This document shows positions 14,306 to 43,216 of a stretch of DNA of 64,000 bases, piece by piece (positions within the stretch are counted from its first letter, which is position 1; each line of letters begins with the position of its first letter). The DNA is taken from positions 32,401 to 96,400 of the forward strand of contig CAVXYF010000002.1 in assembly GCA_963765835.1 (NCBI GenBank). Reading direction: 5' to 3'. Made by a program: the position numbers and the translations under genes. The notes beneath the pieces were generated by a model, which saw only the letters and a list, made by a program, of their open reading frames with translations, was not told the DNA's origin and did no database searches. The stretch is from an uncultured Acidobacteriota bacterium. Lineage in GTDB: Bacteria > Acidobacteriota > Thermoanaerobaculia > UBA5066 > Gp7-AA6.

Positions 14306-15060
<755 letters not shown>

Positions 15061-22157: not shown

Positions 22158-22175
22158 TTGTGAAAAAGTTCACAA
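22158..22175 (+). promoter_or_regulatory. Rex operator (TTGTGAA-N4-TTCACAA), ~50 bp upstream of nuoA, in the divergent intergenic region with a TTGACT -35-like hexamer at 22139
   Basis: Exact palindrome TTGTGAAAAAGTTCACAA. The rex gene lies at the 3' end of the same operon. Confidence 0.75.
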
Positions 22176-22227: not shown

Positions 22228-22581
22228 ATGGAAGAAAGTTATCTCCCGATCCTCATCCTGATGCTCTTCGCGATCGGAATCGCCGGCGCGATGATCCTCG
22301 TTTCCGCGGTGCTCGGCCCGCGTCTGCGCACGCGCCGGAAGCTCGACACCTACGAGAGCGGAATGCCGCTCCTGGACGCGTCTCACAAACGGATCTCCAT
22401 CCAGTTCTTCCTGATCGCGATGGTCTTCATCCTCTTCGACGTCGAGATCGCGTTCCTCTACCCCTGGGCGCTGGTGTTTCGCGAGGGAGGCATGCCCCTC
22501 TTCTACGAAATGGTGGCCTTCCTCGCGGTCCTCGCCGTGGGCTACGCCTACCTCTGGAAGAACAGGGCGTTCGACTGGTGA
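22228..22581 (+). CDS. nuoA: NADH-quinone oxidoreductase subunit A
   Basis: Three transmembrane helices, with the YESG and FDVE..FLYPWA motifs. Confidence 0.85.
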   Translation: MEESYLPILILMLFAIGIAGAMILVSAVLGPRLRTRRKLDTYESGMPLLDASHKRISIQFFLIAMVFILFDVEIAFLYPWALVFREGGMPLFYEMVAFLAVLAVGYAYLWKNRAFDW

Positions 22582-23084
22582 CCCACGTCCGTTACACGCT
22601 CGAGTCCGGGGGAGCACCGGCGAAGTTTCCCCCGAGGCGCGCCAGCGGATCGAGCGGATCCTGGCCCGCTACCCCACGAAGCAGGCGGCGCTCCTGCCCG
22701 TCCTGTGGGTCGCGCAGGAGACCTGGGGCTGGATTTCCCGGGAAGCGGCCGAGGAAGTCGCTCGGATCCTGGAACTCCCCCCGCGCACGTTTCGGGGTTC
22801 TCACCTTCTACACGATGTACAACCTGCGGCCCGTCGGCCGGAACCTGCTCCAGTTCTGCACGTCGATCTCCTGCCACATCGCGGGCGCCGGCCGACTGCT
22901 CGATCACTGCCGGAACCGTCTCGGGATCGACCTCGGTCAGACCACCGCGGACGGCAGCTTCACGATGGTCGAGGTCGAGTGCATCGCGGGCTGCGACCGC
23001 GCGCCGTCGATGATGGTCAACGACACCTACCACGAGCCGATGGACGCGGCGCGGCTGGATGCCCTGCTGGACGGGTTGAAGTGA
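22578..23084 (+). pseudogene. nuoE: NADH-quinone oxidoreductase subunit E (24-kDa, [2Fe-2S]), interrupted by frameshifts at homopolymer runs
   Basis: The C-terminal half (CTSISCHIAGAG...VECIAGCDRAP) is in the ORF frame. The N-terminal half (ARQRIERILARYPTKQAALLPVLWVAQETWGWIS) lies in another frame. Removing one C from CCCCCC at 22774-22779 restores LELPRARFGVLTFYTMY. A second shift near the GGGGG run at ~22608 is probable. Confidence 0.75.
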
Positions 23085-24397
23085 AGTCGGAGCAGGTTCT
23101 TCTCGCGCGGGTCGGCCGGGAGCACTCGGAGGCGATCGACACGTACGTCGCGGACGGCGGGTACGAGGCTCTCCGGAAAGTCCTCGGCGGCGCGTGGACT
23201 CCGGAAGCCGTCACGGAGGAGGTCAAGAAGTCGGGGCTTCGCGGCCGCGGCGGCGCGGGTTTCCCGACCGGCGTGAAGTGGGGCTTCGTCCCCAAGGACA
23301 CGAAGGGGAAGCCGGTCTACCTCCTCTGCAACGCGGACGAGTCGGAGCCCGGGACCTTCAAGGACCGGCTGCTGATGGAGAAGGACCCCCACCAGATGCT
23401 GGAGGGCCAGATCATCTCGGCGTACGCGCTGAAGTGCCGCAGCTCGTACATCTACATCCGCGGCGAGTTCTACGAGGGAGCCCGGATCCTGCAGCGCGCG
23501 ATCGACGAGGCGTACCGGGAGGGCTTCCTCGGGGAGAACATCCTCGGGTCCGGGTTCTCGCACGACATGACCGTCCACCGCGGCGCCGGCGCCTACATCT
23601 GCGGCGAGGAGACCGGTCTGATCGAGAGCCTGGAGGGCAAACGCGGCCAGCCTCGGATCAAGCCGCCCTTCCCCGCCGTGTTCGGGGTCTTCGGCGCGCC
23701 CACGATCGTCAACAACGTCGAGACGCTGTGCTGCGTGACCCACGTGATGAAACGGGGCGCCGAGTGGTTCGCAAAGATCGGCCGAAACGAGAAGAACACG
23801 GGGCCGAAGCTCTACTGCCTGTCCGGTCACGTCAACCGGCCCGGCGTCTACGAGGCCCCGATGGGCCTTCAGATGAAGGAGCTCCTCTTCGGGGACGACT
23901 ACGGGCAGGGCATGAAGGACGGCCGTAAGGTCAAGGCGGTCATCCCGGGTGGAGCCTCCGCGGCAATGCTGACGGCGGAGGAAATCGAAGACTGTCCGCT
24001 GGACTTCGACGGCCTGGCCGCCAAGAAGTCGATGCTGGGGTCGGCCGCGATCATCGTCATGAACGAGGACACCTGCATCGTCGACGCCGCGACGAACCTG
24101 GCCAAGTTCTTCTCCCACGAGTCGTGCGGGCAGTGCACTCCCTGTCGGGAGGGAACTCCCTGGCTGCACCGGGTGCTCGCGCGCATCGAAGACGGGGAGG
24201 GCCGGAGCGAGGACATCGACCTCCTCGAGAAGATCTCCAACCAGATGGCCAACGGCATGACCATCTGCGTCTTCGCGGACGCCGCGATCGCGCCAGTGCT
24301 GTCGTCGATCGGGAAGTTCCGCGACGAGTACCGGTACCACGTCGAGAACAAACGCTGTCTCGTGGGGCCGCGCGCCGGGGCGCTGGCCACGGCATGA
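23081..24397 (+). CDS. nuoF: NADH-quinone oxidoreductase subunit F (51-kDa, FMN/NADH/[4Fe-4S])
   Basis: GRGGAGFPTG, GEETGLIESLEG, and the CGQCTPCREG cluster motif. A GTG start overlaps the nuoE stop. Confidence 0.9.
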   Translation: MKSEQVLLARVGREHSEAIDTYVADGGYEALRKVLGGAWTPEAVTEEVKKSGLRGRGGAGFPTGVKWGFVPKDTKGKPVYLLCNADESEPGTFKDRLLMEKDPHQMLEGQIISAYALKCRSSYIYIRGEFYEGARILQRAIDEAYREGFLGENILGSGFSHDMTVHRGAGAYICGEETGLIESLEGKRGQPRIKPPFPAVFGVFGAPTIVNNVETLCCVTHVMKRGAEWFAKIGRNEKNTGPKLYCLSGHVNRPGVYEAPMGLQMKELLFGDDYGQGMKDGRKVKAVIPGGASAAMLTAEEIEDCPLDFDGLAAKKSMLGSAAIIVMNEDTCIVDAATNLAKFFSHESCGQCTPCREGTPWLHRVLARIEDGEGRSEDIDLLEKISNQMANGMTICVFADAAIAPVLSSIGKFRDEYRYHVENKRCLVGPRAGALATA

Positions 24398-26046
24398 GCA
24401 CCCCGGCCCCGCCCGCGACCGAAAAGAAGACCGTCACCGTCGTCTTCGACGGTGTCCCGATCGAGGTGCCCCCCGGGATCAACCTGATCGAGGCTGCGAA
24501 GCTCGCGGGAATCGAGATCCCCCACTTCTGCTTCCACCCCCGGCTGTCGGTCGTCGGGCAGTGCCGGATGTGCCTCGTCGAGATCGAGGGCATTCCCAAG
24601 ATCCAGGCGGCGTGCACGACCCCGCTGAAGGAAGGTCTCGTCGTCAAGACGACCACGGAGAAGGTGCGCGACTCGCGGGCCGCGAACATGGAGTTCCTCC
24701 TCATCAACCACCCGCTCGATTGCCCGATCTGCGACCAGGCCGGCGAGTGCAAGCTGCAGGACAACGCGTTCGGCTACGGCGAGCAGCGGTCCCGGTACGA
24801 CGAGCGGAAGCGGCAGTACGCCGGCTACGACCGGACGATGATCGGACCGCACGTCGTCGCCGACATGACCCGCTGCATCCAGTGCACGCGGTGCATCCGC
24901 TTCTGCTCCGAGATCGCAGGCACCGGCGAGCTCACCTTCCTGGATCGCGGCGGGCGCACGCTCGTCTGGACCCACGACGGTAAGCCGCTCGCGAACGACT
25001 GGTCGGCGTGCGCAGCCGACGTTTGCCCGGTCGGCGCGCTCACGACCCGGGAGTTCCGGTTCCGGCGCCGCGTCTGGGACCTCGCAAAGACTCCCTCGGT
25101 CTGCCCGGGGTGCAACATCGGCTGCAACATCTCGATCGAGAACCGCGACAACGTGGTCTACCGGTTCCTGCCCCGGCTGAACCCGGACGTGAACGACTAC
25201 TGGCTCTGCGACTACGGCCGCTTTCTGTCGGAGAGCCTGAACGCCCGGGACGTGGCGAAGGCCACGGTCCGGAGCGCGACGGAGGTGCGGGACGTCATCG
25301 TGCCGGCGGCCGTCGGGCAGATCGCGTCCGTCATCCGGGAGACGATCGACGCGGACGGGCCGTCGGGGCTGTTCTTCCTCGGGTCGGCGGACCTCTCGAA
25401 CGAGGAGAACTTTCTCCTCCGGAAGATCTCGGACCACCTGGGGTGCGCCAACCGCGACGTCGTCGTCGACCGCTCCCGGGTTCGCCGGATGAAGTCGAAG
25501 ACCGAGTGGATCGAGGGAGACCACGCCGCCGCCAACTACGCCGGCGCCCGGGACATGGGCATGACGCCGGGACCCGGTGGGCACGGCCTCGCCGACGTCC
25601 TCGAGGGCCGGTGGAGTCCGGCGGTCGTGGTCGTCGCGGACGCGGCGTTCTCGGCGGCCGCGGACGACCCGGACTCGGTTGCCCTGCTCCGCAAGGCGAA
25701 ATTTCTCGCGGTCGCCGGGCGAACCTCCAACGCCTTGACCCGAGCGGCCGACGTCGTCCTCCCGGCGTCCTCGCTCGCCCAGAAGGAGGGTTCGTTCACG
25801 AACGTGCAGGGGCGCGTCCAGCGGTTCGACCGGGCCTTCCTGCCGCCGCCGCCGTCGCGGCCTCACTGGGAGTTGCTCCTGCTGCTGGCGGTGGCGCTCG
25901 GTTGGGGAGACCGCAACTGGACTCCGGCCGACCTGCGCGCCCAGATCCGCGCGGAGGTAGCGGGCTACGACCACATCACCGAAGAGGAGATGGCGGGCGG
26001 CGGCCTCCTGAAGAAGGGGCTGTTCGTCTCGACCGGCGCGCTGTGA
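24394..26046 (+). CDS. nuoG: NADH-quinone oxidoreductase subunit G (short form, ~550 aa)
   Basis: N-terminal 2Fe-2S and 4Fe-4S cysteine clusters (CRMCLVE, CPICDQAGEC, CIQCTRCIRFC, CPVGAL). ATGA overlap with nuoF. Confidence 0.9.
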   Translation: MSTPAPPATEKKTVTVVFDGVPIEVPPGINLIEAAKLAGIEIPHFCFHPRLSVVGQCRMCLVEIEGIPKIQAACTTPLKEGLVVKTTTEKVRDSRAANMEFLLINHPLDCPICDQAGECKLQDNAFGYGEQRSRYDERKRQYAGYDRTMIGPHVVADMTRCIQCTRCIRFCSEIAGTGELTFLDRGGRTLVWTHDGKPLANDWSACAADVCPVGALTTREFRFRRRVWDLAKTPSVCPGCNIGCNISIENRDNVVYRFLPRLNPDVNDYWLCDYGRFLSESLNARDVAKATVRSATEVRDVIVPAAVGQIASVIRETIDADGPSGLFFLGSADLSNEENFLLRKISDHLGCANRDVVVDRSRVRRMKSKTEWIEGDHAAANYAGARDMGMTPGPGGHGLADVLEGRWSPAVVVVADAAFSAAADDPDSVALLRKAKFLAVAGRTSNALTRAADVVLPASSLAQKEGSFTNVQGRVQRFDRAFLPPPPSRPHWELLLLLAVALGWGDRNWTPADLRAQIRAEVAGYDHITEEEMAGGGLLKKGLFVSTGAL

Positions 26047-27083
26047 GCGGCACAGACCTGGGGATCGCGGCCCTTCGCGTGCTCGCCCCGGTCCTGGCCA
26101 TCCTGATCGTTCTGCCGATGCTCCAGTGGGTGGAGCGCCGCGGAGCCGGCTTGATCCAGGACCGGCCGGGCCCCAACCGCGTCGGCCCGTTCGGCCTTCT
26201 CCAGCCGCTCGCCGACGTCGTCAAGTTCTTCATGAAGGAAGACCTGATCCCGTCGAACGCGGACCGTTTCCTCTACGTGCTCGCGCCGGGCCTCGCGGCG
26301 TTCGCGGCGATGACCACCTTCGCTGTCATCCCGTACGGGGCGACGCTGACCGCGGGCGGCCGGGTCATACCGCTGGTCGGCGCGGACATCTCGATCGGGA
26401 TCCTGTACCTGTTCGCGCTCACCTCGCTGTCGGTCTACGGGATCGTGCTCGCGGGCTGGTCTTCCAACAACAAATTCTCCCTGATGGGCGGCATCCGCTC
26501 GAGCGCTCAGATCATTTCCTACGAGCTCGCGATGACGACCGCCGCCGCCGGCGTCGTTCTTTCGGCCGGATCGTTCCGGCTGACGGAGGTCGTCGTCCAA
26601 CAGGGCGGGAGCTGGTTCGCGTTCCCCTTCCACGGATGGAACGTCGTTCCGCAATTCCTGGGGTTCGTCGTCTTCTTCGTCTCCGCGTTCGCGGAGACCA
26701 ACCGCCTTCCCTTCGACCTCCCGGAAGCCGAGGCGGAGCTCGTCGCCGGATACCACACCGAGTATTCCGCCATGAAGTTCGCGATGTTCTACATGGCCGA
26801 GTACATCAACGTCATCGTGGCCTCGGCGCTCACGGTCACGCTCTACTTCGGGGGCTGGACGCTGCCCGGTTTTCACCCGACCGGGATCGGCGGCGTCCTC
26901 CTCTCGGTCCTGGTCTTCGCGGTCAAGACCGTAGCCGTCGTGTGGGTCTTCATGTGGGTGCGGTGGACTCTGCCGCGCTTCCGGTACGACCAGCTCATGC
27001 GGCTCGGCTGGAAAGCGCTCCTGCCGCTCGCGCTCGCGAACCTCTTCTGGGCCGCGGCGCTCGTTCTCTGGAAGGTCCTGTGA
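26043..27083 (+). CDS. nuoH: NADH-quinone oxidoreductase subunit H
   Basis: Multi-transmembrane protein with the conserved FAETNRLPFDLPEAE.ELVAGY.TEYS motif; GTGA overlap with nuoG. Confidence 0.9.
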   Translation: MSGTDLGIAALRVLAPVLAILIVLPMLQWVERRGAGLIQDRPGPNRVGPFGLLQPLADVVKFFMKEDLIPSNADRFLYVLAPGLAAFAAMTTFAVIPYGATLTAGGRVIPLVGADISIGILYLFALTSLSVYGIVLAGWSSNNKFSLMGGIRSSAQIISYELAMTTAAAGVVLSAGSFRLTEVVVQQGGSWFAFPFHGWNVVPQFLGFVVFFVSAFAETNRLPFDLPEAEAELVAGYHTEYSAMKFAMFYMAEYINVIVASALTVTLYFGGWTLPGFHPTGIGGVLLSVLVFAVKTVAVVWVFMWVRWTLPRFRYDQLMRLGWKALLPLALANLFWAAALVLWKVL

Positions 27084-27589
27084 CGGTCCGGCTCGCGTTC
27101 GACGTCGCCGCGGGGCTCGCAATCGTCTTCGCCTGCGCCATGGTGGTACACCGCCACCCGGTCAAGAGCGTTCTCGCGCTGGTCGTCTCGTTCTTCGCCC
27201 TCGCGGTCACGTTCGTGCTCCTTTCGGCGCCGCTGATCGCGGCCGTCCAGGTCATCGTCTACGCGGGCGCCATCCTCGTCCTCTTTCTCTTCGTGCTGAT
27301 GCTCTTAAACGTGCCCGCCGAGGTCCGACAGACCCCGGGCCGGCCGATCCACCACACGCTTTCGGCCGGAGCGATCGTGGCCTTCGCGGCGGCTTTGCTG
27401 GCGGCGTTCCGCTCCTACGGCTCGACGTCCGCGACTCCCTCCGCGGCGCTTTCGGACCCCTCCGACCTGGCTCCTCTCGCCCGGGTTCTGTTCTCGGATC
27501 ACCTCCTCTCGTTCGAGGCCCTGTCGATCCTGCTCCTGGCGGCGCTCGTGGGGGCGTTCGCTCTGGCGCGGCGGGAGGGAAGCCCGTGA
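27081..27589 (+). CDS. nuoJ: NADH-quinone oxidoreductase subunit J
   Basis: Small five-transmembrane-helix subunit sitting directly after nuoH, with no nuoI between them. Confidence 0.8.
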
Positions 27590-27900
27590 CGCCCAACGGA
27601 ATTCCGCTGGGCGACATCCTGCTCGCCTCCGGAGCGCTCTTCTCGATCGGGCTCGCGGGCGCGCTGCTGCGCCGGAACGCCATCTCGATCTTCCTCGCCA
27701 TCGAGCTGATGATGAACGCGGCGAACCTGGCGATCCTCGGCTATGCCGCGGCGCTCAACAGCCTCGAGGGGCAGATCGTCGTCTTCTTCGTGATCGCGAT
27801 CGCCGCCGCCGAGGCCGCGGTGGGGCTCGCCATCTTCGTCGCCCTCTTCCGGCACACCGAAACGATCGACGTCAACAAGATCAACCTGCTGAAGTGGTGA
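27586..27900 (+). CDS. nuoK: NADH-quinone oxidoreductase subunit K
   Basis: 104 aa with three transmembrane helices; the ...AAAEAAVGLAI.. motif. Confidence 0.9.
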   Translation: MTPNGIPLGDILLASGALFSIGLAGALLRRNAISIFLAIELMMNAANLAILGYAAALNSLEGQIVVFFVIAIAAAEAAVGLAIFVALFRHTETIDVNKINLLKW

Positions 27901-27901
27901 C

Positions 27902-29836
27902 ATGACGGTTGCCCTCTGGGTCGTCGCGGCGCTCCCGCTCGCCGGCTTCCTGCTGTGCCTTCTGCTGGGGCCCCGGCTCGGGAAGTCGTTCGTCTCGGCG
28001 GTCGGCGCCGGGTCCGTGGGCCTGGCGACGGTCGCCGCCTGGTCCCGACTCGTCCCCTACCTGGCGGGAGACGGCGGAACGGTCGTCGAGAAGGTGGCCC
28101 CGTGGATTGCCGCGGGCGACTTCTCCGTGGACCTCTCCCTGCGTCTCGACCCGCTGTCGGCCCTGATGGTCTCGTTCGTCACGTTCGTCGGTTTCCTCAT
28201 CCACGTCTACTCGATCGGCTACATGAAGCACGACGAGACCGACGCCGGTTACGCGCGCTACTTCGCCTACCTCAACCTGTTCCTTTTCGCGATGCTCGTC
28301 CTCGTGCTCGCGAACAACTTCCTCCTCATGTTCGTGGGGTGGGAGGGTGTGGGCCTCTGCTCCTACCTGCTCATCGGCTACTACTACGAGAGGGAGTACG
28401 CGGCCGACGCCGGAAAGAAGGCGTTCATCGTCAACCGGATCGGCGACTTCGGGTTTCTCCTCGGGATGTTCGGCGTCTTCTCGCTCTTCGGCACGCTCGA
28501 CTTCGATGCCGTCTTCACGAGCGCCGCCGCGGATCCCGGGCGGTTCGCGCCGGGCTTGACCCTCGTCTGCCTCCTCCTCTTCGTGGGGGCGATGGGCAAG
28601 AGCGCCCAGTTCCCGCTCCACGTCTGGCTTCCGGACGCGATGGCTGGACCGACCCCCGTCTCCGCGCTCATCCACGCCGCGACCATGGTGACCGCGGGTG
28701 TCTACATGGTGACACGCTGCAACGTCCTCTTCCGCCTCGCTCCCGACGCAATGTTCGTCGTCGCGGTCGTGGGAGGGTTGACCGCCATCTTCGCCGCAGT
28801 GATCGCGATCGCCCAGAACGACATCAAGAAGGTCCTCGCCTACTCGACCGTGTCCCAACTCGGGTACATGTTCATGGCCTGCGGGGTCGGGGCGTATGTC
28901 GCCGGGATGTTCCACGTCCTCACGCACGCCTTCTTCAAGGCCTGCCTGTTCCTCGGTTCGGGGGCCGTCATCCACGCCCTGGGGGGCGAGCAGGACATGC
29001 GGCGCATGGGTGGTCTCGCGCGCCGGCTCCCCGTGACCTATCGCACGTTCGTGGTCGCGACCCTCGCGCTCGCCGGCATTCCGCCGCTCGCCGGGTTCTT
29101 CTCCAAGGACGCCATCCTGACCGGGGTGTTCGCCGCGCACCACACGGTCCTCTTCGGAATCGGTCTCCTCACCGCCGGCCTCACGGCTTTTTATATGTTC
29201 CGGCTCGTCTCCCTGACCTTTGCCGGAGAGTTTCGAGGGACGCCGGAAGAGGCGGCTCACATCCACGAGGCGCCTCCGTCGATGACCGTCCCGCTCGTCG
29301 TCCTCGCCTTTCTCTCGGCGGTCGCCGGATTTCTGGGAATGCCCGAGGTCTTCGGGGAGCACGCCAACCGGATTGCCGCCTTTCTGCAACCGGTCTTTCC
29401 GAGGATCGGGCTCGCCTCCGCCGAGGCCCCCGAACACGCGCTTTCGGCAGTCACGGAGTGGGTCCTCATCGGCGCCTCGGTGGCCTTCGCCGTCGTCGGC
29501 ATCCTCGTCGCCTGGAACTGGTACGCGAGGAAGCGGGGCGAGCCGGCGGAGCGCGTGGCCGCGTCGTTCCCGGCTCTCTATCGGCTGGTCGTGGAGAAGT
29601 TCCGGATCGACGACCTCTATGACGCCCTCTTTGTGAAGCCCTTCGCGTGGCTCGCGCGAATGCTTTGGAAGGTAGTCGACGTTCTCATCATCGACGGCGT
29701 ACTGAACGCCGGCGCCTTCATCGTCGAGCTCATCGGCGACGTCCTGCGTTTCCTGCAGACGGGAAACGTGCGCAACTACGCCCTGACGTTCCTGATCGGC
29801 ATCGTGGCGCTCCTCCTGATCGTGCTGGCCGGATAG
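27902..29836 (+). CDS. nuoL: NADH-quinone oxidoreductase subunit L
   Basis: 644-aa antiporter-like subunit, with the long C-terminal amphipathic-helix region. Confidence 0.9.
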   Translation: MTVALWVVAALPLAGFLLCLLLGPRLGKSFVSAVGAGSVGLATVAAWSRLVPYLAGDGGTVVEKVAPWIAAGDFSVDLSLRLDPLSALMVSFVTFVGFLIHVYSIGYMKHDETDAGYARYFAYLNLFLFAMLVLVLANNFLLMFVGWEGVGLCSYLLIGYYYEREYAADAGKKAFIVNRIGDFGFLLGMFGVFSLFGTLDFDAVFTSAAADPGRFAPGLTLVCLLLFVGAMGKSAQFPLHVWLPDAMAGPTPVSALIHAATMVTAGVYMVTRCNVLFRLAPDAMFVVAVVGGLTAIFAAVIAIAQNDIKKVLAYSTVSQLGYMFMACGVGAYVAGMFHVLTHAFFKACLFLGSGAVIHALGGEQDMRRMGGLARRLPVTYRTFVVATLALAGIPPLAGFFSKDAILTGVFAAHHTVLFGIGLLTAGLTAFYMFRLVSLTFAGEFRGTPEEAAHIHEAPPSMTVPLVVLAFLSAVAGFLGMPEVFGEHANRIAAFLQPVFPRIGLASAEAPEHALSAVTEWVLIGASVAFAVVGILVAWNWYARKRGEPAERVAASFPALYRLVVEKFRIDDLYDALFVKPFAWLARMLWKVVDVLIIDGVLNAGAFIVELIGDVLRFLQTGNVRNYALTFLIGIVALLLIVLAG

Positions 29837-29839
29837 CGC

Positions 29840-31357
29840 ATGGCAGAGCTCCTCGAGTCCCGCCTGCTGACCGTGCTGGTCTTTCTGCCGTCGGCGGCGG
29901 CGGTCCTCCTTCTCTTTTTTCCGGAGAGCCGCAGCCGGGAGGCGAAGATCTTCGCGATCGCCGCGTCCGTCCTGGAGCTCGGCCTCGCGCTCCCCCTCTG
30001 GTCCCGTTTCGACGTCAGCTCCGGCGCCTTCCAGTTCGTCGAGCGAACCGACTGGATCCCGGCGCTCGGGATCTCCTACACGCTGGGGATCGACGGCATC
30101 TCCCTGTTGCTGATCCTGTTGACCGTCGTCCTCACGCCCGTCTCTCTTCTTTTCTCGCTCACGCACGTCCAGAAGAGCGCCCGGGCGTTCTCGATCGCGT
30201 TCCTGGTGCTCGAGACCGGGATCAACGGCACACTTGCGGCCCTCGACCTCGCGCTCTTCTACGTCTTCTGGGAAGTGATGCTCGTCCCGATGTACTTCAT
30301 CATCGGGATCTGGGGTGGGGCTCGGCGGATCTACGCCGCCATGAAGTTCTTCCTGTTCACGATGGCGGGGAGCCTCCTCATGTTCCTCGCGATCCTGTAC
30401 CTCGCGGCGCGGCACCGGGCGGAGACGGGCGAGTGGTCGTTCCTGCTCGCCGACCTCGCCACGCTGACCTACCCGTCGATGGCCATCCAAACCGTTCTCT
30501 TCCTCGCATTCGCGCTCGCTTTCGCGATCAAGGTGCCGGTCTTCCCTCTCCACACCTGGCTGCCCGACGCGCACACGGAGGCCCCGACGGCCGGCTCGAT
30601 CATCCTGGCCGGCGTCCTGCTCAAGCTGGGGGTGTACGGATACCTGCGGTTCGCGCTGCCGCTCTTCCCCGACTCCTCGATCCGATTCGCGCCGTGGCTC
30701 GGGGTGCTCGGAGTCATCGGGGTCATTTACGGAGCCCTCGTGGCCTTCGCGCAGAAGGACATGAAGCGCCTCGTGGCCTACTCCTCGGTTTCTCACCTCG
30801 GGCTGGTCGTGATCGGAATCGGCGCGTTCACGAGCACCGCCCTGGCCGGGTCGGTTCTCCAAATGATCAACCACGGTCTGTCGACCGGCGCCCTGTTCCT
30901 CCTCGTTGGCGTGCTCTACGAACGAACCCACACGCGCGAGATCGCCGACTACGGCGGAATCGCGGGCGTCGTGCCGGTGACGACCGGGCTCTTCCTCGTC
31001 GCAACCTTCTCGTCGATCGGCCTTCCCGGGTTGAACGGGTTCGTCGGCGAGTTCCTCGTTCTCCTGGGAACCTGGACGTCCGAACACCGGTGGTGGGCGG
31101 TCGCCGCCGCGACCGGCGTCGTTCTGTCCGCGATCTACATGCTCTCCCTGGTGCAGCGAGTCTTCTGGAACCCGCTGACGAGAGACGAGAACCGCCGGCT
31201 TCGGGATATCCGGGCGAGCGAGCTCGTCGCGGCCGGGACGCTGATCGTGCTCATGGTCTGGATCGGCGTCCGGCCGAACGACGTCCTCGATCGAATCCGG
31301 CCGTCCGTGGAGGAGCTGCGGCGTTCCGTGGCGGCGCACGTGGGGGCCCGGCCTTGA
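29840..31357 (+). CDS. nuoM: NADH-quinone oxidoreductase subunit M
   Basis: 505-aa antiporter-like subunit. Confidence 0.9.
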   Translation: MAELLESRLLTVLVFLPSAAAVLLLFFPESRSREAKIFAIAASVLELGLALPLWSRFDVSSGAFQFVERTDWIPALGISYTLGIDGISLLLILLTVVLTPVSLLFSLTHVQKSARAFSIAFLVLETGINGTLAALDLALFYVFWEVMLVPMYFIIGIWGGARRIYAAMKFFLFTMAGSLLMFLAILYLAARHRAETGEWSFLLADLATLTYPSMAIQTVLFLAFALAFAIKVPVFPLHTWLPDAHTEAPTAGSIILAGVLLKLGVYGYLRFALPLFPDSSIRFAPWLGVLGVIGVIYGALVAFAQKDMKRLVAYSSVSHLGLVVIGIGAFTSTALAGSVLQMINHGLSTGALFLLVGVLYERTHTREIADYGGIAGVVPVTTGLFLVATFSSIGLPGLNGFVGEFLVLLGTWTSEHRWWAVAAATGVVLSAIYMLSLVQRVFWNPLTRDENRRLRDIRASELVAAGTLIVLMVWIGVRPNDVLDRIRPSVEELRRSVAAHVGARP

Positions 31358-31374
31358 CCCCCAGCTTTCTCGCG

Positions 31375-32808
31375 ATGGGACCCAACGACGTGGCGGCGGC
31401 CGCGCCCGAAATCTGCCTCGCCGCGGCCGGCTGCCTCCTGGTGCTCCTGGACGCGTTCGCCCCCTCGGCCCGGCGGTGGTTCGCAACGCTCTCGCTCGCC
31501 GCCCTCGCCCTCTCGATCTGGTTCCTCCTGGAGGCACCGTACGGCCTTTCCTTCGGCGGGCGGTACGAGACCTCCGACCTGACGACCGCGGCCGGACTCT
31601 TCGCAGCGGCAACGGCCGCCGTCGCCATCCTCGTCGCAAAGCCGTACCTCCGCCGCACCGGCGAGGAGAAGGGCGAGTTTTACGCCCTCCTGCTGTGGGG
31701 CCACCTCGGGGTCTCTCTCATGACGCGGGGGCTCGACCTGCTCATCGTGTTCATCGGGCTGGAGACCCTGTCGCTCTCCTTCTACGTTTTGGCGGCATTT
31801 TTCCGGACCATCCACGCTTCCTCGGAGGCCGGCCTGAAGTACTTCCTGACCGGCGCCTTCGGCTCGGCGTTCACGCTCTACGGCATCGCACTTCTCTTCG
31901 GCAAAGCCGGCACGGTCCGGATCGCCGCCCTCGCGCGGCCGGACCTCGGCGCCGATCCCCTGGTTCTCTTCGGCCTCCTCCTCCTGCTGGTCGGTTTCGG
32001 GTTCAAGATGTCGCTCGCTCCCTTCCACGCGTGGGCCCCCGACGTCTACCAGGGAATGCCCACACCCGCGGTCGCCTACCTCTCCGTGGCGCCGAAGGGC
32101 GCGAGCGTGATCGTGCTCTATCGCGTCTTGACGGCGGCCTTCGAGGGCGGGATGCCGGACCGTTTCCGGACGGCGATCGCCGTTCTCGCGATTCTGTCCA
32201 TGAGCCTGGGCAACGTCGTGGCCCTGGCCCAGCGCGACATCAAACGACTTCTCGCGTATTCGGGAATCGCGCACATGGGCTACGTGACGATTGCGCTCGC
32301 GATATTCGGCCGCGATGCCCTCGCCGCCGTGATCGTCTACTTCTTCGCCTACGTGGTCTCGAACGCCGGTGCGTTCGCGGCGGTCGCGGCTCTCTATGGC
32401 GACGAGACGAAGCCGCATCCGGTCGGTCTGCTCGCCGGGGCGGGCCATCGGTCGCCCTTTGCGGCGGCCGTGCTGGCCCTGTGCATGTTCTCGCTCGCCG
32501 GAATCCCCGCGACCGCCGGCTTCATCGGAAAGTTCTTCGTCTTCAAGTCCGCCATCGACGGGGGCTTCTACGCCCTCGCGATCATCGGCGTCGTCAACAG
32601 TCTCATTTCCATCGGTTACTACCTGAAGGTCGTGTACATCCTCTACATGCGCGAACCGGTCGAGGAGAGCGCTCCCCCGCGCCTCGCGATCGCGGATCGC
32701 CTCGTGCTCGGGCTCTGCGGGGCCGGGATCCTGGCGCTTGGCATCTTTCCGGCGGGCGTCTGGAACTTTGCGCGCAACGCCGCCGCGAGCCTTTCCCTCG
32801 GACCATGA
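31375..32808 (+). CDS. nuoN: NADH-quinone oxidoreductase subunit N
   Basis: Antiporter-like subunit. The start is either ATG at 31375 or TTG at 31354; the ORF track over-extends it upstream in the same frame. Confidence 0.85.
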   Translation: MGPNDVAAAAPEICLAAAGCLLVLLDAFAPSARRWFATLSLAALALSIWFLLEAPYGLSFGGRYETSDLTTAAGLFAAATAAVAILVAKPYLRRTGEEKGEFYALLLWGHLGVSLMTRGLDLLIVFIGLETLSLSFYVLAAFFRTIHASSEAGLKYFLTGAFGSAFTLYGIALLFGKAGTVRIAALARPDLGADPLVLFGLLLLLVGFGFKMSLAPFHAWAPDVYQGMPTPAVAYLSVAPKGASVIVLYRVLTAAFEGGMPDRFRTAIAVLAILSMSLGNVVALAQRDIKRLLAYSGIAHMGYVTIALAIFGRDALAAVIVYFFAYVVSNAGAFAAVAALYGDETKPHPVGLLAGAGHRSPFAAAVLALCMFSLAGIPATAGFIGKFFVFKSAIDGGFYALAIIGVVNSLISIGYYLKVVYILYMREPVEESAPPRLAIADRLVLGLCGAGILALGIFPAGVWNFARNAAASLSLGP

Positions 32809-33605
32809 GCCGCACGACGCCGCCCAGGACGTCCCGCGAGTCGAAGGAGCCAGTATCGGAGGCGACGGCTTCCCGTCTCTCGGTCTACGTTCGATGCCTC
32901 GCCGAGCTCGAGGCAGAGGGCCGGGAGCACATTTCGTCGCAGGAGCTGGCGCGCCGCTTCCACCTGAACTCTCCCCAGATCCGCAAGGACCTCGCGACTT
33001 TCGGCGAGTTCGGCATCCGCGGCGTCGGTTACTCGATCGGCGCTCTCAAGCGGCACCTCGTCTCGATCCTCGGCCTCGACCAGGTCCGCCGGGTCGCAAT
33101 CGTCGGGGCCGGCCACCTGGGCTCGGCTCTGGCGGACTACGGCGGCTTCCGCTCCGGCGGCTTCCGCATCGTCGCCCTGTTCGACAACGACCGCTCCCGG
33201 ATCGGCTCGAAGAGCCGGGCGGGCGTGCCGGTGCACGACGTCCGCCGGATGGCGGAGGTAGTCGCTCGGGAAGGGATCGAGATTGCCGTGATCGCCGTCC
33301 CGGCGTCCGCTGCGGCGGAGGTCGCCCGGCAGTGCTGGGAAGCTGGCCTGAAAGCAGTCCTGAACTTCGCGCCGGTGCGCCTCGACCCTCCCTCCGACGC
33401 CTTTCTGAAGAACGTCGATCTCAAGATCAACCTCGAAACGCTCTCCTTCTACATCGCGCGTCCCGGAGGGCGACCTGCAAAGGTCAAAGGAGAAACGAAT
33501 GCCGTCGAAGCCGAAGCCGTTTTCCCCGCAAGGCCGCGCCGTCCCCGCGCCGAAGCCCGTCACCCCGGAGCGCGGCTCCCACCGGCCCAAGCCGATCGCG
33601 GCTGA
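32805..33605 (+). CDS. rex: Redox-sensing transcriptional repressor Rex
   Basis: Winged-helix N-terminus (ISSQELARRFHLNSPQIRKDLATFGEFGIRGVGY) and a Rossmann fold (VAIVGAGHLGSAL). ATGA overlap with nuoN. The ORF continues ~55 aa past the usual Rex C-terminus and overlaps gdh. Confidence 0.75.
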   Translation: MSRTTPPRTSRESKEPVSEATASRLSVYVRCLAELEAEGREHISSQELARRFHLNSPQIRKDLATFGEFGIRGVGYSIGALKRHLVSILGLDQVRRVAIVGAGHLGSALADYGGFRSGGFRIVALFDNDRSRIGSKSRAGVPVHDVRRMAEVVAREGIEIAVIAVPASAAAEVARQCWEAGLKAVLNFAPVRLDPPSDAFLKNVDLKINLETLSFYIARPGGRPAKVKGETNAVEAEAVFPARPRRPRAEARHPGARLPPAQADRG

Positions 33606-34845
33606 GAACCTCAACCCGTACGACTTCGCGCTCCTTCAGTTCGATCGGGCGGCGGACAAGCTCGGGCTGGACTCGGGGGTGCGCGCGGTCCTGTCCACGC
33701 CGAAGCGGCAGCTCATCGTTTCCGTGCCCATCAAGATGGACGACGGCTCGATCAGCGCGTTCCAGGGATACCGGGTCCAGCACTCGATCACCCGCGGGCC
33801 CTCCAAGGGGGGGATCCGGTATCACCCCGGCGTCACCCTCGACGAAGTCAAGGCTCTCGCGATGTGGATGACGTGGAAGTGCGCGGTCGTCAACATCCCG
33901 TTCGGCGGCGCGAAGGGCGGAATCACCGTCGATCCCAAGAAGCTGTCAGACGGTGAGAACGAGCGGATGACGCGCCGCTACACGTCCGAGATCTCGATTC
34001 TCCTGGGGCACGACCGAGACATCCCGGCTCCCGACGTCTACACCACGCCCCAGACGATGGCCTGGATCATGGACACGTTCTCGATGACGAAGGGATATTC
34101 GACCCTTGGCGTCGTGACGGGGAAGCCGCTCGCCGTCGGCGGCTCCGCAGGCCGCAACGAGGCGACGGCGGAGGGATGCTTCGTCGCCATCGAAGAGGCC
34201 GCGAACAGGCTCTCCCTCCCGCTTCACGGGACGACGGCGGCGGTCCAGGGCTTCGGCAACGCGGGCGCGGCGGTCGCGCGGTTTCTCGACGAGGCAGGGG
34301 TCAGGGTGGTCGCGATCTCCGATTCGAAGGGGGGCATCTACGACAAGCGCGGACTGGAGCTGAACGCGGTGTTTACGGCCAAGGAGAAGAAGGGATCCGT
34401 CACCGCGGCGCGCGGGGAGAAGATCACCAACGAAGAGATCCTGGAGCTGCCCGTCGACATCCTCGTCCCCGCGGCGCTGGAGGGCGTCATCACCCGGAAG
34501 AACGCGCCCCGGATCAAGGCGCAGATCATCGCGGAGGCGGCGAACGGGCCCACGACTCCGGACGCCGACGACATCCTCCGAAGCAAGGGCACGGTGGTCA
34601 TTCCGGACATCCTCGCCAACGCCGGCGGGGTCACCGTCTCGTACTTCGAGTGGGTCCAGGACCTGTACTCGTTCTTCTGGGAGCCGGACGTCGTCCGCAA
34701 TCACCTGGACCGCACGATCCGGCGCGCTTACCAGGAGGTCGACGACACCGCGCGGCGCTACAACACGGACCTCCGCACCGGTGCTCTCATTCTCGGAGTG
34801 GGCCGCGTCGAGGAGGCCACCCGGATCCGCGGCCTCTTCCCGTAG
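33499..34845 (+). CDS. gdhA: NAD(P)-specific glutamate dehydrogenase
   Basis: GPSKGGIRYHP and KCAVVNIPFGGAKGG motifs, with a C-terminal Rossmann fold. The start is uncertain. Confidence 0.85.
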   Translation: MPSKPKPFSPQGRAVPAPKPVTPERGSHRPKPIAAENLNPYDFALLQFDRAADKLGLDSGVRAVLSTPKRQLIVSVPIKMDDGSISAFQGYRVQHSITRGPSKGGIRYHPGVTLDEVKALAMWMTWKCAVVNIPFGGAKGGITVDPKKLSDGENERMTRRYTSEISILLGHDRDIPAPDVYTTPQTMAWIMDTFSMTKGYSTLGVVTGKPLAVGGSAGRNEATAEGCFVAIEEAANRLSLPLHGTTAAVQGFGNAGAAVARFLDEAGVRVVAISDSKGGIYDKRGLELNAVFTAKEKKGSVTAARGEKITNEEILELPVDILVPAALEGVITRKNAPRIKAQIIAEAANGPTTPDADDILRSKGTVVIPDILANAGGVTVSYFEWVQDLYSFFWEPDVVRNHLDRTIRRAYQEVDDTARRYNTDLRTGALILGVGRVEEATRIRGLFP

Positions 34846-37643: not shown

Positions 37644-39059
37644 CCCCCGAAGAGGCGCTGGACGCGACCGTCGCCGAAGTCGCGCCGCTCGTCCGGTCCC
37701 GGCAGCTTTCTCCCGTCCTCCTCGCGGAGGCCTCGCTCGCCCGCCTCGAAAGCACGGGAAAGGCGTTGAACGCCGTCGCGACGGTTACGAGGGAGCGCGC
37801 GCTTCAGGAGGCGCGGAATGCCGATCGGGAGATCGCGGCCGGGCAGTATCGCGGACCCCTTCACGGGATCCCGTACGGCGCGAAAGACCTGCTCGCGACC
37901 GGGGACATTCCGACCGGCTGGGGAGCGCGCCCCCTGCGGGGTCAGACCTTTCCGGAGGACGCGACTGTCATCCGTCGCCTCCGCGAGGCCGGCGCCGTCC
38001 TCGTGGCGAAGCTCGCGATGATCGAGTCCGCGGGAGGTCTCGGCTACAACACGGCAGCCGCGTCATCGAGCGGCGCGACGAGCAATCCCTGGGACCGGGG
38101 CCGGTGGAGCTGCGGGTCGTCTTCCGGGTCGGGGGCGGCCACGGCGGCGGCTCTCGTCGGATTCTCGATCGGCTCCGAAACCTGGGGATCGATCCTCTTG
38201 TCGATCAGCATTCGATGGAGTGACCGGCCTCCGCCCGACGTACGGTCGGGTTCCCAGGACGGGGCGATGGCGCTGTCGTGGACGATGGACAAGATCGGCC
38301 CCATGGCCCGGTCAGCGGAAGATTGCCGCATCGTCCTGGAAGCGATCGGCGGGCCGGACCCCGGCGATCCCTCTTCCCTCGGTGACGGGGCGGCGCGCGA
38401 GGAGGCCAGGACGCCCGCCGACGCGAGCGGATACCGCGTGGAGTCGTGCGACCCGACTTCGGAAAGATCTATGACGCCGACGTCTCGGCGGCGTTCGAGG
38501 AGGCCGTCCGGAAGCTCTCCGGGCTCGGCGTCGCGATTTCCGACGCGAAGCTGGCGGACTTTCCGTTCGACGAAACCGCGGTCATCGTGATCGTGGTCGA
38601 AGCCGCCGCCGCCTTCGAGCCCCTGATCACGTCGGGCCGCGTGCGCGAGCTCGTCGAGCCCGCGGCGCGGTGGGCCGGAGACGCCGCGAAGAGCATCAGC
38701 GGTGTGGACTACGTGCGCGCCATGCAGGCTCGACGCCTGATCCAGCAGGCCTTCGACGAGCTGTTCCAGCGGTACGACCTCCTGATCTCTCCGACGATGC
38801 CGATCGTAGCCGCGAAGCTGACCGACAAGCTGGAGACCGCGTTCGCCTATCGCGATCCCCTGGGATCCGGCGGAAATCTGGCCGGGCTGCCGCCCTGTCC
38901 ATGCCGTGCGGCTTCTCGAAGCGCGGCCTTCCGATCGGGATTCAGGTCGTGGGTCGGCCGTGGGACGAGACCCGGATCCTGGCCCTCGGCCGCCTGTACC
39001 AGGAGAACACCGACTGGCACCGCCGGCGGCCGCCCGTAGGGGCACCGAAGCCCACCTAG
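37640..39059 (+). pseudogene. Amidase-signature family amidase (GatA-like) spread across three reading frames with at least four frameshifts
   Basis: GGSSSGSGAATAAALVGFSIGSETWGSI is in frame 1, GLRPTYGRV in another frame, ...NLAGLPP in a third, and ALSMPCGFSKRGLPIGIQVVGRPWDE in another. Each junction lies at a short G/C homopolymer, for example ctgccg(g)ccctg. Confidence 0.75.
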
Positions 39060-39210
39060 AACAGCGGAAAGAGCTTCTCGCGGTGCCGGCGGGGAAGGGG
39101 CTGGTGTGGTTCGACAGGCCTTGGGGTCTTTGGGAGGCCGGATCTTCGAAACAGACCTATCAGGAGTTGCCACAGGCCCGGTCGTTCGGAAATCCGCTCC
39201 TTTCCCGACA

Positions 39211-40833
39211 TCACTTCTTTGGGCGAAATCGGTCACGCGTATTGACGGTCTGGAGATCGACTTCCTGTCGACGAATCGCTTCCCGAAGCAGATTGAGTGC
39301 GACGACCCCATCGGCCAGCATCGCTTGGTCCTCAAAGACCGGAATAGCAGTTCGAATCTCCTTTTCCGCCTCGTGCGGAAGTCCCATTGCAAGGTAGGTC
39401 TCGGCGATCAGCATTCGGTTGACGGCCTCAAGGGCCTTCATCCCCAATCGCGCGTGCTCATCACAGCTGCTCTTGAGAAGTTCAAGGGCTTCACGGAGCA
39501 TGCCGTGAGAGCGGTACACACAGGAGATCATCGAGTGAACGTCAGCCAGACCTGTAAACTGCTTGCTCTCGCGGAGAAGATGCTCCGCTTCCCCCAACTC
39601 TTGCAGAGCCACTGCGTAGTGGCCACAAATCTGATGAAGGTCGCCTGAGTGCAAGAGTATCCATCCATAGAGGCTTGGAGGGATTTGCGATCCGCAATCC
39701 CGGATCGGTTGTAGGACTTCAAGGGCCTCTTGAAAGCGGCCGAGAAGTTTTAGAGAGGCGGCCCAAAGGATCCGACACTTAACGCGATCCTCCTCCATTC
39801 CGAAGTTTGCGAAGGACTTCTCGAGCGGCGGAGCACCAGCGGCAGCAAGTTCGTATCGACTTTGCTCGTAGAGAGACGCCAGCCGTAAGAAGGCTATCCG
39901 AGTCAGACTGGGGGACGGATTCGGATCATTCTCCAGGTGGGACTCAGCCAGGTCGCACCATCGCTTGAGGTGATCTGGCTCACTTATCTGCCGCAAAGCA
40001 CCGCCTACGACCCGAGCAGCTTCAGAAAGAAGAAACGAATGGAGGTCCTTAGGAAGTCGCCGACCGTGCAGGGACTGGTAGATGTCCTCCGCGACAACAG
40101 AGGTCTTCTTGGGATCTGCCTCACGCTGATCCTCGAGATATAGGAGGACTTGAAAGAGTCCTTCGGCATCGCTGCGCGCAACGTCCGAAAAGGCGGGGGA
40201 GCTCCCGCCCTCCGACTCAAATATCGATTCAGCGACATCCCAGGACAGAGACTTCCGAAAACTTCTCCGGTACTCAGATTCCCAACCCTGCGCCCTATAG
40301 GCTAGGCCGAGAATCCGAGCTGCTCTCCATGCGATGAAGGCAAAGGAACGCGACAGAAGACCCCTTTCCTCCATCTCGTCATCGGGCCATCTAATCGCCG
40401 CGACCACGCTGCCGATTGCCTCCGCCTCTTCGAGAACGAGCTCAGGGCAACCGGCGCAATCCTCAGACAGCCGGGTAACCAGGGCATGGAGTGCGTCTGA
40501 GGCTTCGTCCTGATTCCTCGGGTCAATCGAGACTGGCTGCCGGGTTCTTAAGTCGAACCGGATTCGATCAGCCAACGCAAATGCCTCTGCGTTAGTTTTC
40601 CCCAGAGTAACAACTCTCCCCCGACCGCACTCCAGCCACGCTGGGACCAATTGGGATATTTCGGCGTCTAAGATACTAATAGTCGCCTCCCTGGGAGTCC
40701 GCTTCGCGATACGGCTCCTCGTCCTCTTCCACGGCGGTGCTGCGAGCAGTGCCAGCCTCGGCCGGGGACCATCTTGAGACAAGCTTCGCGCGTCTAACCA
40801 CCTTGCGCTGAAAGTTGACGGATAGGTGGTCAA
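39211..40833 (-). CDS. Large TPR-like repeat protein (candidate regulatory partner or anti-sigma-like); paralogue of 41193-42314
   Basis: C-terminal helical repeats. Clear similarity to the other large ORF (GGA.RQI, LNP.P.L, RY, LE.SF, VKCR.L blocks). The 5' ~150 bp overlap the upstream small ORF, so the true start is probably internal. Confidence 0.55.
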   Translation of the reverse strand: MTTYPSTFSARWLDARSLSQDGPRPRLALLAAPPWKRTRSRIAKRTPREATISILDAEISQLVPAWLECGRGRVVTLGKTNAEAFALADRIRFDLRTRQPVSIDPRNQDEASDALHALVTRLSEDCAGCPELVLEEAEAIGSVVAAIRWPDDEMEERGLLSRSFAFIAWRAARILGLAYRAQGWESEYRRSFRKSLSWDVAESIFESEGGSSPAFSDVARSDAEGLFQVLLYLEDQREADPKKTSVVAEDIYQSLHGRRLPKDLHSFLLSEAARVVGGALRQISEPDHLKRWCDLAESHLENDPNPSPSLTRIAFLRLASLYEQSRYELAAAGAPPLEKSFANFGMEEDRVKCRILWAASLKLLGRFQEALEVLQPIRDCGSQIPPSLYGWILLHSGDLHQICGHYAVALQELGEAEHLLRESKQFTGLADVHSMISCVYRSHGMLREALELLKSSCDEHARLGMKALEAVNRMLIAETYLAMGLPHEAEKEIRTAIPVFEDQAMLADGVVALNLLREAIRRQEVDLQTVNTRDRFRPKK

Positions 40834-41071
40834 CCACCTGGATCAGCCAGGCCTTCGGGTTTCGTCGGGGGTCGAGCTTAACGAGTGCAACCAGAAATGC
40901 CTCTTGCACAACGTCTCGCGCGTCCTCTTTCTCCAATCGATGCTTCCATGTTGCTCTACGAACGAGGGGCAAAAAGTATCGACGGTAGAATTCGTCGAGC
41001 TGCGACGGGTCAGGTCCAGTTGGACTGCCGCCAGGCGGCTCCGAAGCGAGTCCCTCGGTCTTTCGGTTCAC
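40676..41071 (-). CDS. Sigma-70 region-2-only protein (ECF-sigma-like N-terminal domain; no region 4 recognised)
   Basis: DEFYRRYFLPLVRRATWKHRLEKEDARDVVQEAFLVALVKLDPRRNPKAWLIQVVDHLSVNFQRK fits the ECF region-2 pattern, followed by an acidic tail. Confidence 0.5.
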   Translation of the reverse strand: MNRKTEGLASEPPGGSPTGPDPSQLDEFYRRYFLPLVRRATWKHRLEKEDARDVVQEAFLVALVKLDPRRNPKAWLIQVVDHLSVNFQRKVVRRAKLVSRWSPAEAGTARSTAVEEDEEPYREADSQGGDY

Positions 41072-41192
41072 AAACCGCTGCCTCCACCGCTGGCCGTACC
41101 GGTTTCTACTATCTTTATCTTGTCGCGATGGTGCTGCGGAGGGGAGGCGAGCGGCTGGTTCAGCCGGGACGAAAAGACTACTTACCGATAAG

Positions 41193-42314
41193 TCATTTGT
41201 CCGCTTCGAGATGAGATTTGATCTGCTGGAGAGCGGCGGCGTCTGTCGCCCGGCGACGGGCCGAGTCCCTAAGCAGGGCCACTGCAGCCAGAGCCTCGGG
41301 TGCCATCTTCATCTCCTCGATCGAGGGTAGCGCGGCGAGGATCTCCCACTCTGCTTCCCTGTCTCTCCCGAGCGAGATCAGCGTCTCCGCAATTACCAGG
41401 TGCAGATAGGTGACCTGAGATCTCATGTCTAGGGCCAAGTAGGTCCGCTGCGAGGCTCGAAATGCCTCGCAGGCCTCTTCAAAGCGTCCCTGCGCCTGAA
41501 GGACGCCGCCAACGAAAAGCTGGAGATCGGCCCGGACCGGGGACGCGGTCTCGTGGTCAAGGAGAGCGACTGCCCCTTCGAACGCCTTCATCGCGAGGTC
41601 AAGACGTCCTTCAAACTGGTGAAGGTCTCCGATCTCGGAGAGAATCCGGGCCCGGAGAAAGCGATCGCCCGCTAGAAAGGGTTTTTCGTGCAATCCCTCG
41701 AGAAGGCCGAGCGCTCTCGCGGTGTCGCCAGTCTGCTTTAGCGTCATTCCAAGAAGGAGCCGGCACTTCACCGCTTCCACATCCATTTTCAACTTCGTGA
41801 AACTTGCTTCCAGAGACGGCGTCAGCTCAAGCACGTCCTGATAGCGGCCCATTTCAAATCGAGTGGCAATTCGCGCATACGCCACGTTGGCAAGGCCGGG
41901 CGCCGGATTCAGAGTGTGCCGGAAACCGGCCTCTGCCCTATCTAGCCAAAGAAAAGCCTGCTCTCGATTTCCGATTTGCCGGCAAGCTCCGCCTGCGATA
42001 AGAGCCATCTCGCCGAGAAAGTAATCGCGCTCGTCGAAAAGCCCAAGCTTCGAGTTAGGCCTGGAGATCCACTGGTAGATCTCGTTGGAATCTTCAAGAA
42101 CAGTGGTTGGTGTGAGATCCCGTGTCGCGCGCAGAATTGACGTTATCGACATCAGAACGTCCGGGCTGCTAAGGAAACGCTCCCGATCAGAGTCAGTTCT
42201 CCGGCTACGCGAAATCCCGAGAAACGCGCGCCCAGCCACCTCAGCGTCCTTTGGTGAAAGCCAGGAGACTTCCCCTCGAGAGGGGAAGGCGAGAATCTTG
42301 GCGCTAAGAGTCAT
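41193..42314 (-). CDS. TPR-like repeat protein; paralogue of 39211-40833
   Basis: 373 aa with the same domain architecture and alignable blocks. Confidence 0.55.
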   Translation of the reverse strand: MTLSAKILAFPSRGEVSWLSPKDAEVAGRAFLGISRSRRTDSDRERFLSSPDVLMSITSILRATRDLTPTTVLEDSNEIYQWISRPNSKLGLFDERDYFLGEMALIAGGACRQIGNREQAFLWLDRAEAGFRHTLNPAPGLANVAYARIATRFEMGRYQDVLELTPSLEASFTKLKMDVEAVKCRLLLGMTLKQTGDTARALGLLEGLHEKPFLAGDRFLRARILSEIGDLHQFEGRLDLAMKAFEGAVALLDHETASPVRADLQLFVGGVLQAQGRFEEACEAFRASQRTYLALDMRSQVTYLHLVIAETLISLGRDREAEWEILAALPSIEEMKMAPEALAAVALLRDSARRRATDAAALQQIKSHLEADK

Positions 42315-43188: not shown

Positions 43189-43216
43189 GAAAAAAACCGC
43201 TCGGTAGCGGCCGAGC
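43189..43216 (-). terminator. Rho-independent terminator for dacB (minus strand)
   Basis: Minus strand reads CGCTCGGCCGCTACCGAGCGG followed by TTTTTTT, immediately after the dacB stop. Confidence 0.6.

Follow-up and report, generated by a model that had tools for sequence, protein, structure and literature searches.

A conserved complex I operon of Thermoanaerobaculia without the quinone-module genes nuoB, nuoC, nuoD and nuoI

The DNA analysed here, referred to as the window, is a stretch of 64,000 nucleotides (nt) from an uncultured Acidobacteriota bacterium of the class Thermoanaerobaculia (UBA5066, Gp7-AA6; assembly GCA_963765835.1, contig CAVXYF010000002.1, positions 32,401 to 96,400 of the forward strand), and it carries a nuo operon for respiratory complex I that lacks the genes of the quinone module (Q-module), nuoB, nuoC, nuoD and nuoI (together nuoBCDI). 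The operon is real and conserved, and it represents a lineage-typical split of the complex I genes rather than a new enzyme. We consider it likely that this is the NADH-dependent complex I operon of Thermoanaerobaculia, derived from a 14-gene ancestor by removal of nuoBCDI, and that the Q-module is provided in trans, with a second nuo cluster devoid of nuoEFG as its most likely source. The location of nuoBCDI in this genome, the sharing of subunits and the control of the operon by the regulator Rex are points that we infer.

Ten open reading frames (ORFs) on the plus strand between positions 22228 and 32808 of the window, which has a high GC content of ~67%, are named by NCBIfam models as NuoA, E, F, G, H, J, K, L, M and N. 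These names match exactly the gene order and coordinates proposed in an initial annotation made from the sequence.

nuoA, 22228 to 22581, plus strand: 117 amino acids (aa); NCBIfam NuoA/Ndh3 models match at E=6e-27, under their curated cut-offs
nuoE, 22578 to 23084, plus strand: 168 aa as read; residues ~19-74 lie outside the ancestral frame
nuoF, 23081 to 24397, plus strand: 438 aa; TIGR01959, 614 bits, exceeding the cut-off of 559
nuoG, 24394 to 26046, plus strand: 550 aa; TIGR01973, 454 bits, slightly below the cut-off of 470
nuoH, 26043 to 27083, plus strand: 346 aa; NF004741, 333 bits, exceeding the cut-off of 305
nuoJ, 27080 to 27589, plus strand: 169 aa; NCBIfam NuoJ models match at E=9e-30, under their cut-offs; GTGA overlap with nuoH
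nuoK, 27586 to 27900, plus strand: 104 aa; NF004320, 105 bits, exceeding the cut-off of 57
nuoL, 27902 to 29836, plus strand: 644 aa; NF005141, 772 bits, exceeding the cut-off of 556
nuoM, 29840 to 31357, plus strand: 505 aa; TIGR01972, 609 bits, exceeding the cut-off of 264
nuoN, 31354 to 32808, plus strand: 484 aa; TIGR01770, 382 bits, exceeding the cut-off of 333

Seven of the nine internal junctions (A/E, E/F, F/G, G/H, H/J, J/K and M/N) are 4-nt overlaps reading GTGA, ATGA or TTGA. The K/L and L/M junctions are gaps of 1 nt and 3 nt, respectively, so the description of overlapping stop and start codons throughout the operon is very nearly accurate. As the start of nuoE lies on the stop of nuoA and that of nuoJ on the stop of nuoH, no room is left for nuoB, nuoC, nuoD and nuoI, and the central claim of the initial annotation is thereby upheld. 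A scan for promoters and terminators gave no signal above background. The genes of the NADH-oxidizing N-module (nuoE, nuoF and nuoG, with the flavin mononucleotide (FMN)/NADH site and the Fe-S ligands) and of the membrane arm (nuoA, nuoH and nuoJ to nuoN, with conserved proton-channel residues) correspond to the 14-subunit Nuo type, the Q-module genes of which are absent from the cluster. Relative to the 11-subunit type, in which nuoEFG are absent and nuoBCDI present, the window shows the opposite gene content; its features are those of a partial nuo cluster, with nuoB and nuoI missing and nuoJ following straight after nuoH. An identity as F420H2 dehydrogenase (Fpo), Mrp antiporter or hydrogenase-4/Mbh was rejected, since for subunits H, K, L, M and N the Fpo, Mrp and Hyf models are outscored by the Nuo models and remain far short of their own cut-offs.

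The missing genes were likewise not detected in the remainder of the window. A tblastn search of the whole 64 kb with E. coli NuoB, NuoCD and NuoI gave a best match of E=0.16 and none at E<0.1, and profile hidden Markov models built from 122 NuoB, 122 NuoD, 122 NuoI and 8 NuoC sequences returned zero positive-scoring domains on the six-frame translation with all filters off. Exact-protein look-ups with NuoF and NuoM of the window returned no record. Relatives were collected by a NuoH scan of one genome per GTDB species, which assigned the window to the Acidobacteriota class Thermoanaerobaculia, the closest by NuoH identity being loci L003 (93%) and L002 (87%). The order A-E-F-G-H-J-K-L-M-N was found in 11 species-level Thermoanaerobaculia loci (L002-L011 and L013, the last from a metagenome-assembled genome (MAG) of Sulfomarinibacteraceae) with NuoH identities of 58-93%, and no nuoB, nuoC, nuoD or nuoI was present within 10 kb on either side of the nuo cluster in any of them. 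Recurrence of the order in 11 independently assembled relatives shows that it is due neither to chance nor to mis-assembly.

The coding sequences are under strong purifying selection. Compared with L003 and L002, nine of the ten genes have ratios of non-synonymous to synonymous substitution rates (dN/dS) of 0.04-0.12 (nuoA 0.05 and nuoF 0.04 versus L003). Functional residues were checked by alignment to the E. coli subunits, and the numbering given here is that of the E. coli equivalents. In the antiporter-like subunits these are E144, D178, K229, H334, H338, K342, K399 and D400 of NuoL, E144, K234, K265 and E407 of NuoM, and E133, K158, K217, K247 and K395 of NuoN, all of which are kept. The same applies to E36 and E72 of NuoK, D79 and E81 of NuoA, Y59 of NuoJ, and E36, R37, E157, D213, E216, E220 and E228 of NuoH, as well as to the cysteines of the Fe-S clusters N1a (NuoE, once its frame is repaired), N3 (NuoF) and N1b, N4, N5 and N7 (NuoG). 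The functions of these residues we take to be those described for E. coli and Thermus thermophilus, the conserved NuoH residues presumably lining the quinone cavity and the E-channel. Their retention would be sensible only if NuoH sits beneath a NuoB/D/I module, and the kept residues as a whole are predicted to make sense only in a complete complex I.

The NuoG protein, for which a short form of ~550 aa had been pointed out, is indeed 550 aa long. Its Pfam domains are Fer2_4, NADH-G_4Fe-4S_3, Fer4_Nqo3, Molybdop_Fe4S4 and an incomplete Molybdopterin domain; a C-terminal Molydop_binding domain is lacking. The length does not set this operon apart, however: NuoG of relatives with complete 14-gene operons is 512-557 aa, and all N1b/N4/N5/N7 ligands are present. 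Consequently, the short length is a trait of the clade and has no connection with the absence of the Q-module genes.

In a neighbour-joining tree of NuoF and NuoH, calculated without bootstrap, all A-E-F-G-H-J..N clusters form one clade, the neighbours of which are complete 14-gene operons (L012/L091, L025 and L028, including Schekmanbacteria and Oligoflexia). The next clusters out are of the Polarisedimenticolia type, A-C-D-E-F-G-H-J. The position of a single clade beside full 14-gene operons fits one loss of nuoB, nuoC, nuoD and nuoI, which may have occurred at the root of the class in an ancestor with all 14 genes. The locus in itself is an ordinary respiratory operon with lineage-specific gene loss.

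One gene of the operon is damaged as read. The match of NuoE to its family is confined to residues 73-168 (TIGR01958, 117 bits, cut-off 142), on account of three 1-nt deletions relative to both L003 and L002 at ~22633, ~22780 and ~22801, each in a run of C or G. The deletions sum to -3 and the frame is restored, leaving ~56 codons (residues ~19-74) that are open but off the ancestral frame. The initial annotation needs correction on this one point, the nuoE frame being disrupted. The repaired protein is nearly identical to those of the relatives and matches TIGR01958 over its full length with 171 bits, and 14 of the 16 differences to L003 in the shifted stretch fall on ancestral third codon positions. 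With the ancestral frame otherwise perfectly preserved, the deletions look like either very recent lesions or local assembly errors. The 20 kb alignment to L003 contains no other frameshifting indel. A general collapse of homopolymers was considered as the cause and rejected, as C and G runs of 5-7 are equally frequent in the window and the relatives and no other frameshift occurs in the 20 kb.

These observations bear on three rival readings of the locus. That it is an assembly artefact, with nuoBCDI lost through a mis-join or concealed in shifted frames, the two outcomes named in the initial annotation as capable of overturning it, is scarcely conceivable: the junctions are identical in 11 independent assemblies, collinearity of the window with L003 and L002 extends over ~20 kb, and the six-frame tblastn and profile searches were negative. 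A decaying remnant, in which the Q-module genes are gone, nuoE is frameshifted and a functional enzyme is no longer made, would account for the three deletions in nuoE and for its as-read score under the family cut-off. It is nevertheless very unlikely in view of the dN/dS values of the other nine genes, the retention of every checked catalytic residue and the gene order maintained in 11 diverged species, while the third-position bias in nuoE and the near-identity of its repaired product to the relatives indicate selection until very recently, or else assembly errors. We regard it as extremely improbable that the locus encodes a self-sufficient new enzyme in which NuoEFG docks straight onto the membrane arm, for which the bare gene content is the sole argument. 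In complex I, NuoB holds cluster N2 and NuoI holds N6a and N6b, and the quinone site is formed by NuoD, NuoB and NuoH. By this established structural knowledge no electron path leads from NuoG to quinone without NuoB, NuoI and NuoD. Moreover, NuoH retains its quinone-cavity and E-channel residues, the overlapping junctions leave no extra gene as a substitute, and the clade is placed among ordinary 14-gene operons.

The operon would yield an N-module (NuoE, F and G) together with the whole of the proton-pumping membrane arm (NuoA, H, J, K, L, M and N), and a working NADH:quinone oxidoreductase would have to draw NuoB, NuoC and NuoD as well as NuoI from genes elsewhere in the genome. These would most likely come from a second nuo cluster, of the EFG-less composition nuo(A)BCDHIJKLMN, such that two loci would share one Q-module. 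A cluster of this kind is indicated by Suppl. Table 5 of Flieder et al. 2021 (PMC8528874), which gives RAST gene numbers for MAGs of Ca. Sulfomarinibacter, a member of the same class. In that table AM1 (1526-1523) and AM3-C (987-984) have A-E-F-G in an uninterrupted series. A separate series consists of B, C, D, H, I, J and K in AM1 (1987-1996) and extends from B to N in AM3-B (2142-2133), and in AM2 A and B are neighbours (866, 865). Should the partner locus be an 11-gene cluster, two NuoH paralogues would have to accept the same Q-module, and the cell could build two forms of complex I from common parts. Between the two alternatives left by the initial annotation, a split or second nuo locus for nuoBCDI fits the class-wide gene order, the purifying selection, the kept residues and the published B-C-D-H-I-J-K run; the other, a variant assembly of N-module and membrane arm that dispenses with the Q-module, finds no support.

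Several points weigh against a second, EFG-less cluster as the provider. No nuoB, nuoC, nuoD or nuoI was recovered for the source genome or its close relatives, as protein searches, context look-ups and a metagenome scan led to other lineages only. With NuoD of L024 as query only Polarisedimenticolia-type A-C-D-E-F-G-H-J clusters were matched. NuoB of L012 gave broad matches, of which the contexts checked were full 14-gene operons or an operon with nuoB and without nuoI, and the matches to NuoI of L012 were mostly from Planctomycetota. Among the matches listed, none lay on the large MAG contigs of L006, L009 and L010 (3,381,549, 1,763,771 and 3,878,252 nt). The metagenome scan with NuoD of L012 returned 11 loci, none of them informative, and a plasmid search for NuoB returned no Acidobacteriota. 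Furthermore, the published table that points to the second cluster gives a single gene number for each subunit, and it concerns a family with NuoH only 58% identical to that of the window. The damage to NuoE, if real, also counts against a working N-module in this strain.

Several bacteria have their nuo genes divided between loci, and nuoBCDI could lie elsewhere in the genome, either grouped in a small operon of their own or dispersed, and serve this complex alone, with no second membrane arm and no sharing. In Acidobacteriae nuoB and nuoI have been reported outside all nuoACD..N operons (bioRxiv 10.1101/197269). Conversely, in those members of the class for which gene numbers have been published, B-C-D run on directly into H-I-J-K(-L-M-N) and so make up a full EFG-less cluster, and we judge a dedicated or scattered set to be unlikely. 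A provider in the form of an EFG-less cluster also admits a more elaborate scheme, which we put forward tentatively, as possible rather than probable. The single Q-module, encoded only in the EFG-less cluster, would serve two different membrane arms, the Rex-gated operon would hold the sole N-module along with the alternative membrane arm, and a rising NADH/NAD+ ratio would convert an 11-subunit, NADH-independent complex into a 14-subunit NADH dehydrogenase by the addition of modules instead of the expression of another complete enzyme. This combinatorial complex I is proposed for Thermoanaerobaculia and may exist in weaker forms in other Acidobacteriota. If a Q-module is indeed shared by two nuo loci, the class, along with much of the phylum in weaker forms, would provide a natural case of complex I module swapping and would bear on how the modules came together in evolution. 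Cyanobacterial NDH-1 variants, which share a core, are comparable. Annotation pipelines that decide on the presence or absence of complex I operon by operon will give wrong results for these bacteria, which are abundant in soil and sediment.

The proposed control by Rex arises from two features that flank the operon.

Rex operator, 22158 to 22175, no strand assigned: palindrome TTGTGAAAAAGTTCACAA, an exact match to TTGTGAAnnnnTTCACAA, ~50 nt upstream of nuoA
rex, 32805 to 33605, plus strand: 266 aa as read; start codon ATG overlapping the stop of nuoN (ATGA)

The operator is the sole match in the 64 kb even with two mismatches allowed (0.01 expected by chance), and an identical, exact operator is found upstream of nuoA in L002, L003 and L005. 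The product of rex exceeds the cut-offs of two Rex models (NF003995, 245 bits, cut-off 126; NF003993, 231 bits, cut-off 217) and contains the Pfam domains Put_DNA-bind_N and CoA_binding, in line with the winged-helix N-terminal and Rossmann NAD(H) domains of this family. The perfect 18-nt site upstream of the target operon is likewise in line with a Rex regulon. In combination, the operator before nuoA and the overlap of rex with nuoN define the operon as nuoAEFGHJKLMN-rex, which is probably auto-regulated by the NADH/NAD+ ratio. Rex made from the 3' end of the operon would bind the operator before nuoA and repress transcription, and it would be released when NADH/NAD+ rises. Rex control of nuo is known from Streptomyces coelicolor. 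The operator and the coupled rex gene render the regulatory model open to direct test.

Other gene orders were encountered among the loci examined.

Acidobacteriaceae and Polarisedimenticolia-like loci: gene order A-C-D-E-F-G-H-J..N
Blastocatellia: gene order A-H-J-K-L-M-N
Latescibacterota locus L015 and the unassigned lineage L101-L103: nuoI absent between H and J

Operons of the nuoACD(EFG)HJKLMN type, without nuoB and nuoI, were observed directly in L024, L036, L061-L079 and L082-L084. In the Blastocatellia loci L014 and L017 only the membrane arm is present (nuoA-H-J-K-L-M-N), with NuoH 56% identical to that of the window; these clusters are the most reduced form of this trend within the phylum. 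Outside Acidobacteriota, L101-L103 (ENA contigs) and L015 are near-complete nuo operons (A-B-C-D-x-E-F-G-H-J-K..) in which nuoI is missing between nuoH and nuoJ, and relocation of nuoI seems to be recurrent.

Upstream of the operon, on the opposite strand, lies a lipid/polysaccharide-type cluster encoding a GT2 glycosyltransferase, a polysaccharide deacetylase, an acyltransferase, a short-chain dehydrogenase/reductase (SDR), an acyl carrier protein (ACP) and a STAS protein. A glutamate dehydrogenase gene is located downstream of rex (33499-34845). Such a gene is also found just downstream of the nuo cluster in L083 and L084, Acidobacteriota MAGs of a different class, whose nuo clusters have only two antiporter-like subunits after nuoK. 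Further away, a tRNA-Leu(CAG) gene at 14306-14390 precedes a series of tandem repeats, ~3-3.5 units with a length of 182-184 nt (region 14306-15025), each unit opening with a copy of the tRNA 3' end (..GAGTCCCCCCTTTCGCACCA). The ORF at 11322-12158, integrase-like as judged by eye from its translated N-terminus, is situated just upstream of a lower-GC block (~58%, 12-14 kb). Taken together, the ORF, the block and the repeat array look like serial integration scars at a tRNA gene. A second lower-GC block (~59-63%, 38000-44000) has few confident gene calls and may be another acquired region.

With respect to regulation, the locus resembles known Rex regulons: it encodes a Rex-family protein that passes curated cut-offs, and a perfect operator TTGTGAAnnnnTTCACAA stands before a respiratory operon. 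It differs in that rex is, as read from the overlapping codons, translationally coupled to the end of the nuo operon that it presumably represses. With the canonical 14-gene nuo operon (E. coli; T. thermophilus nqo) it shares the subunit families of 10 of the 14 genes, their relative order, the FMN/Fe-S and proton-channel residues that were checked, and a place in the tree next to full 14-gene operons, e.g. L012. By contrast, nuoB, nuoC, nuoD and nuoI are found neither in the operon nor in the surrounding 64 kb, and rex is appended to nuoN.

Closer parallels are provided by partial clusters. Peatland Acidobacteria have nuoACDHJKLMN operons, one also with nuoEFG, that are without nuoB and nuoI (Hausmann et al., bioRxiv 10.1101/197269). 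These are from the same phylum and likewise have J directly after H, but they retain nuoC and nuoD, whereas the window is devoid of the whole Q-module. Marine actinomycetes (Salinispora, Streptomyces and Kocuria) carry partial nuoA-(hyp)-H-J-K-L-M-N clusters (PMC6676996) which, like those of the Blastocatellia loci L014 and L017, comprise a membrane arm without Q-module genes and depend on another nuo locus. Those clusters are also without nuoEFG, whereas the window keeps the N-module, of which it is apparently the only source. Complex I-like clusters of the 11-subunit, EFG-less type, nuoABCDHIJKLMN, are commonly found together with 14-type clusters in one genome (PMC3144371, PMC3362086, PMC9386147). 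The presumed partner locus with nuoBCDI would be of this type, and the window is the reverse case, in which EFG are present and BCDI absent. The gene string nuoAEFGHJKLMN did not occur in the literature text searched. Partial nuo clusters are thus already documented, and the AEFGHJKLMN arrangement of the window is a further variant of them.

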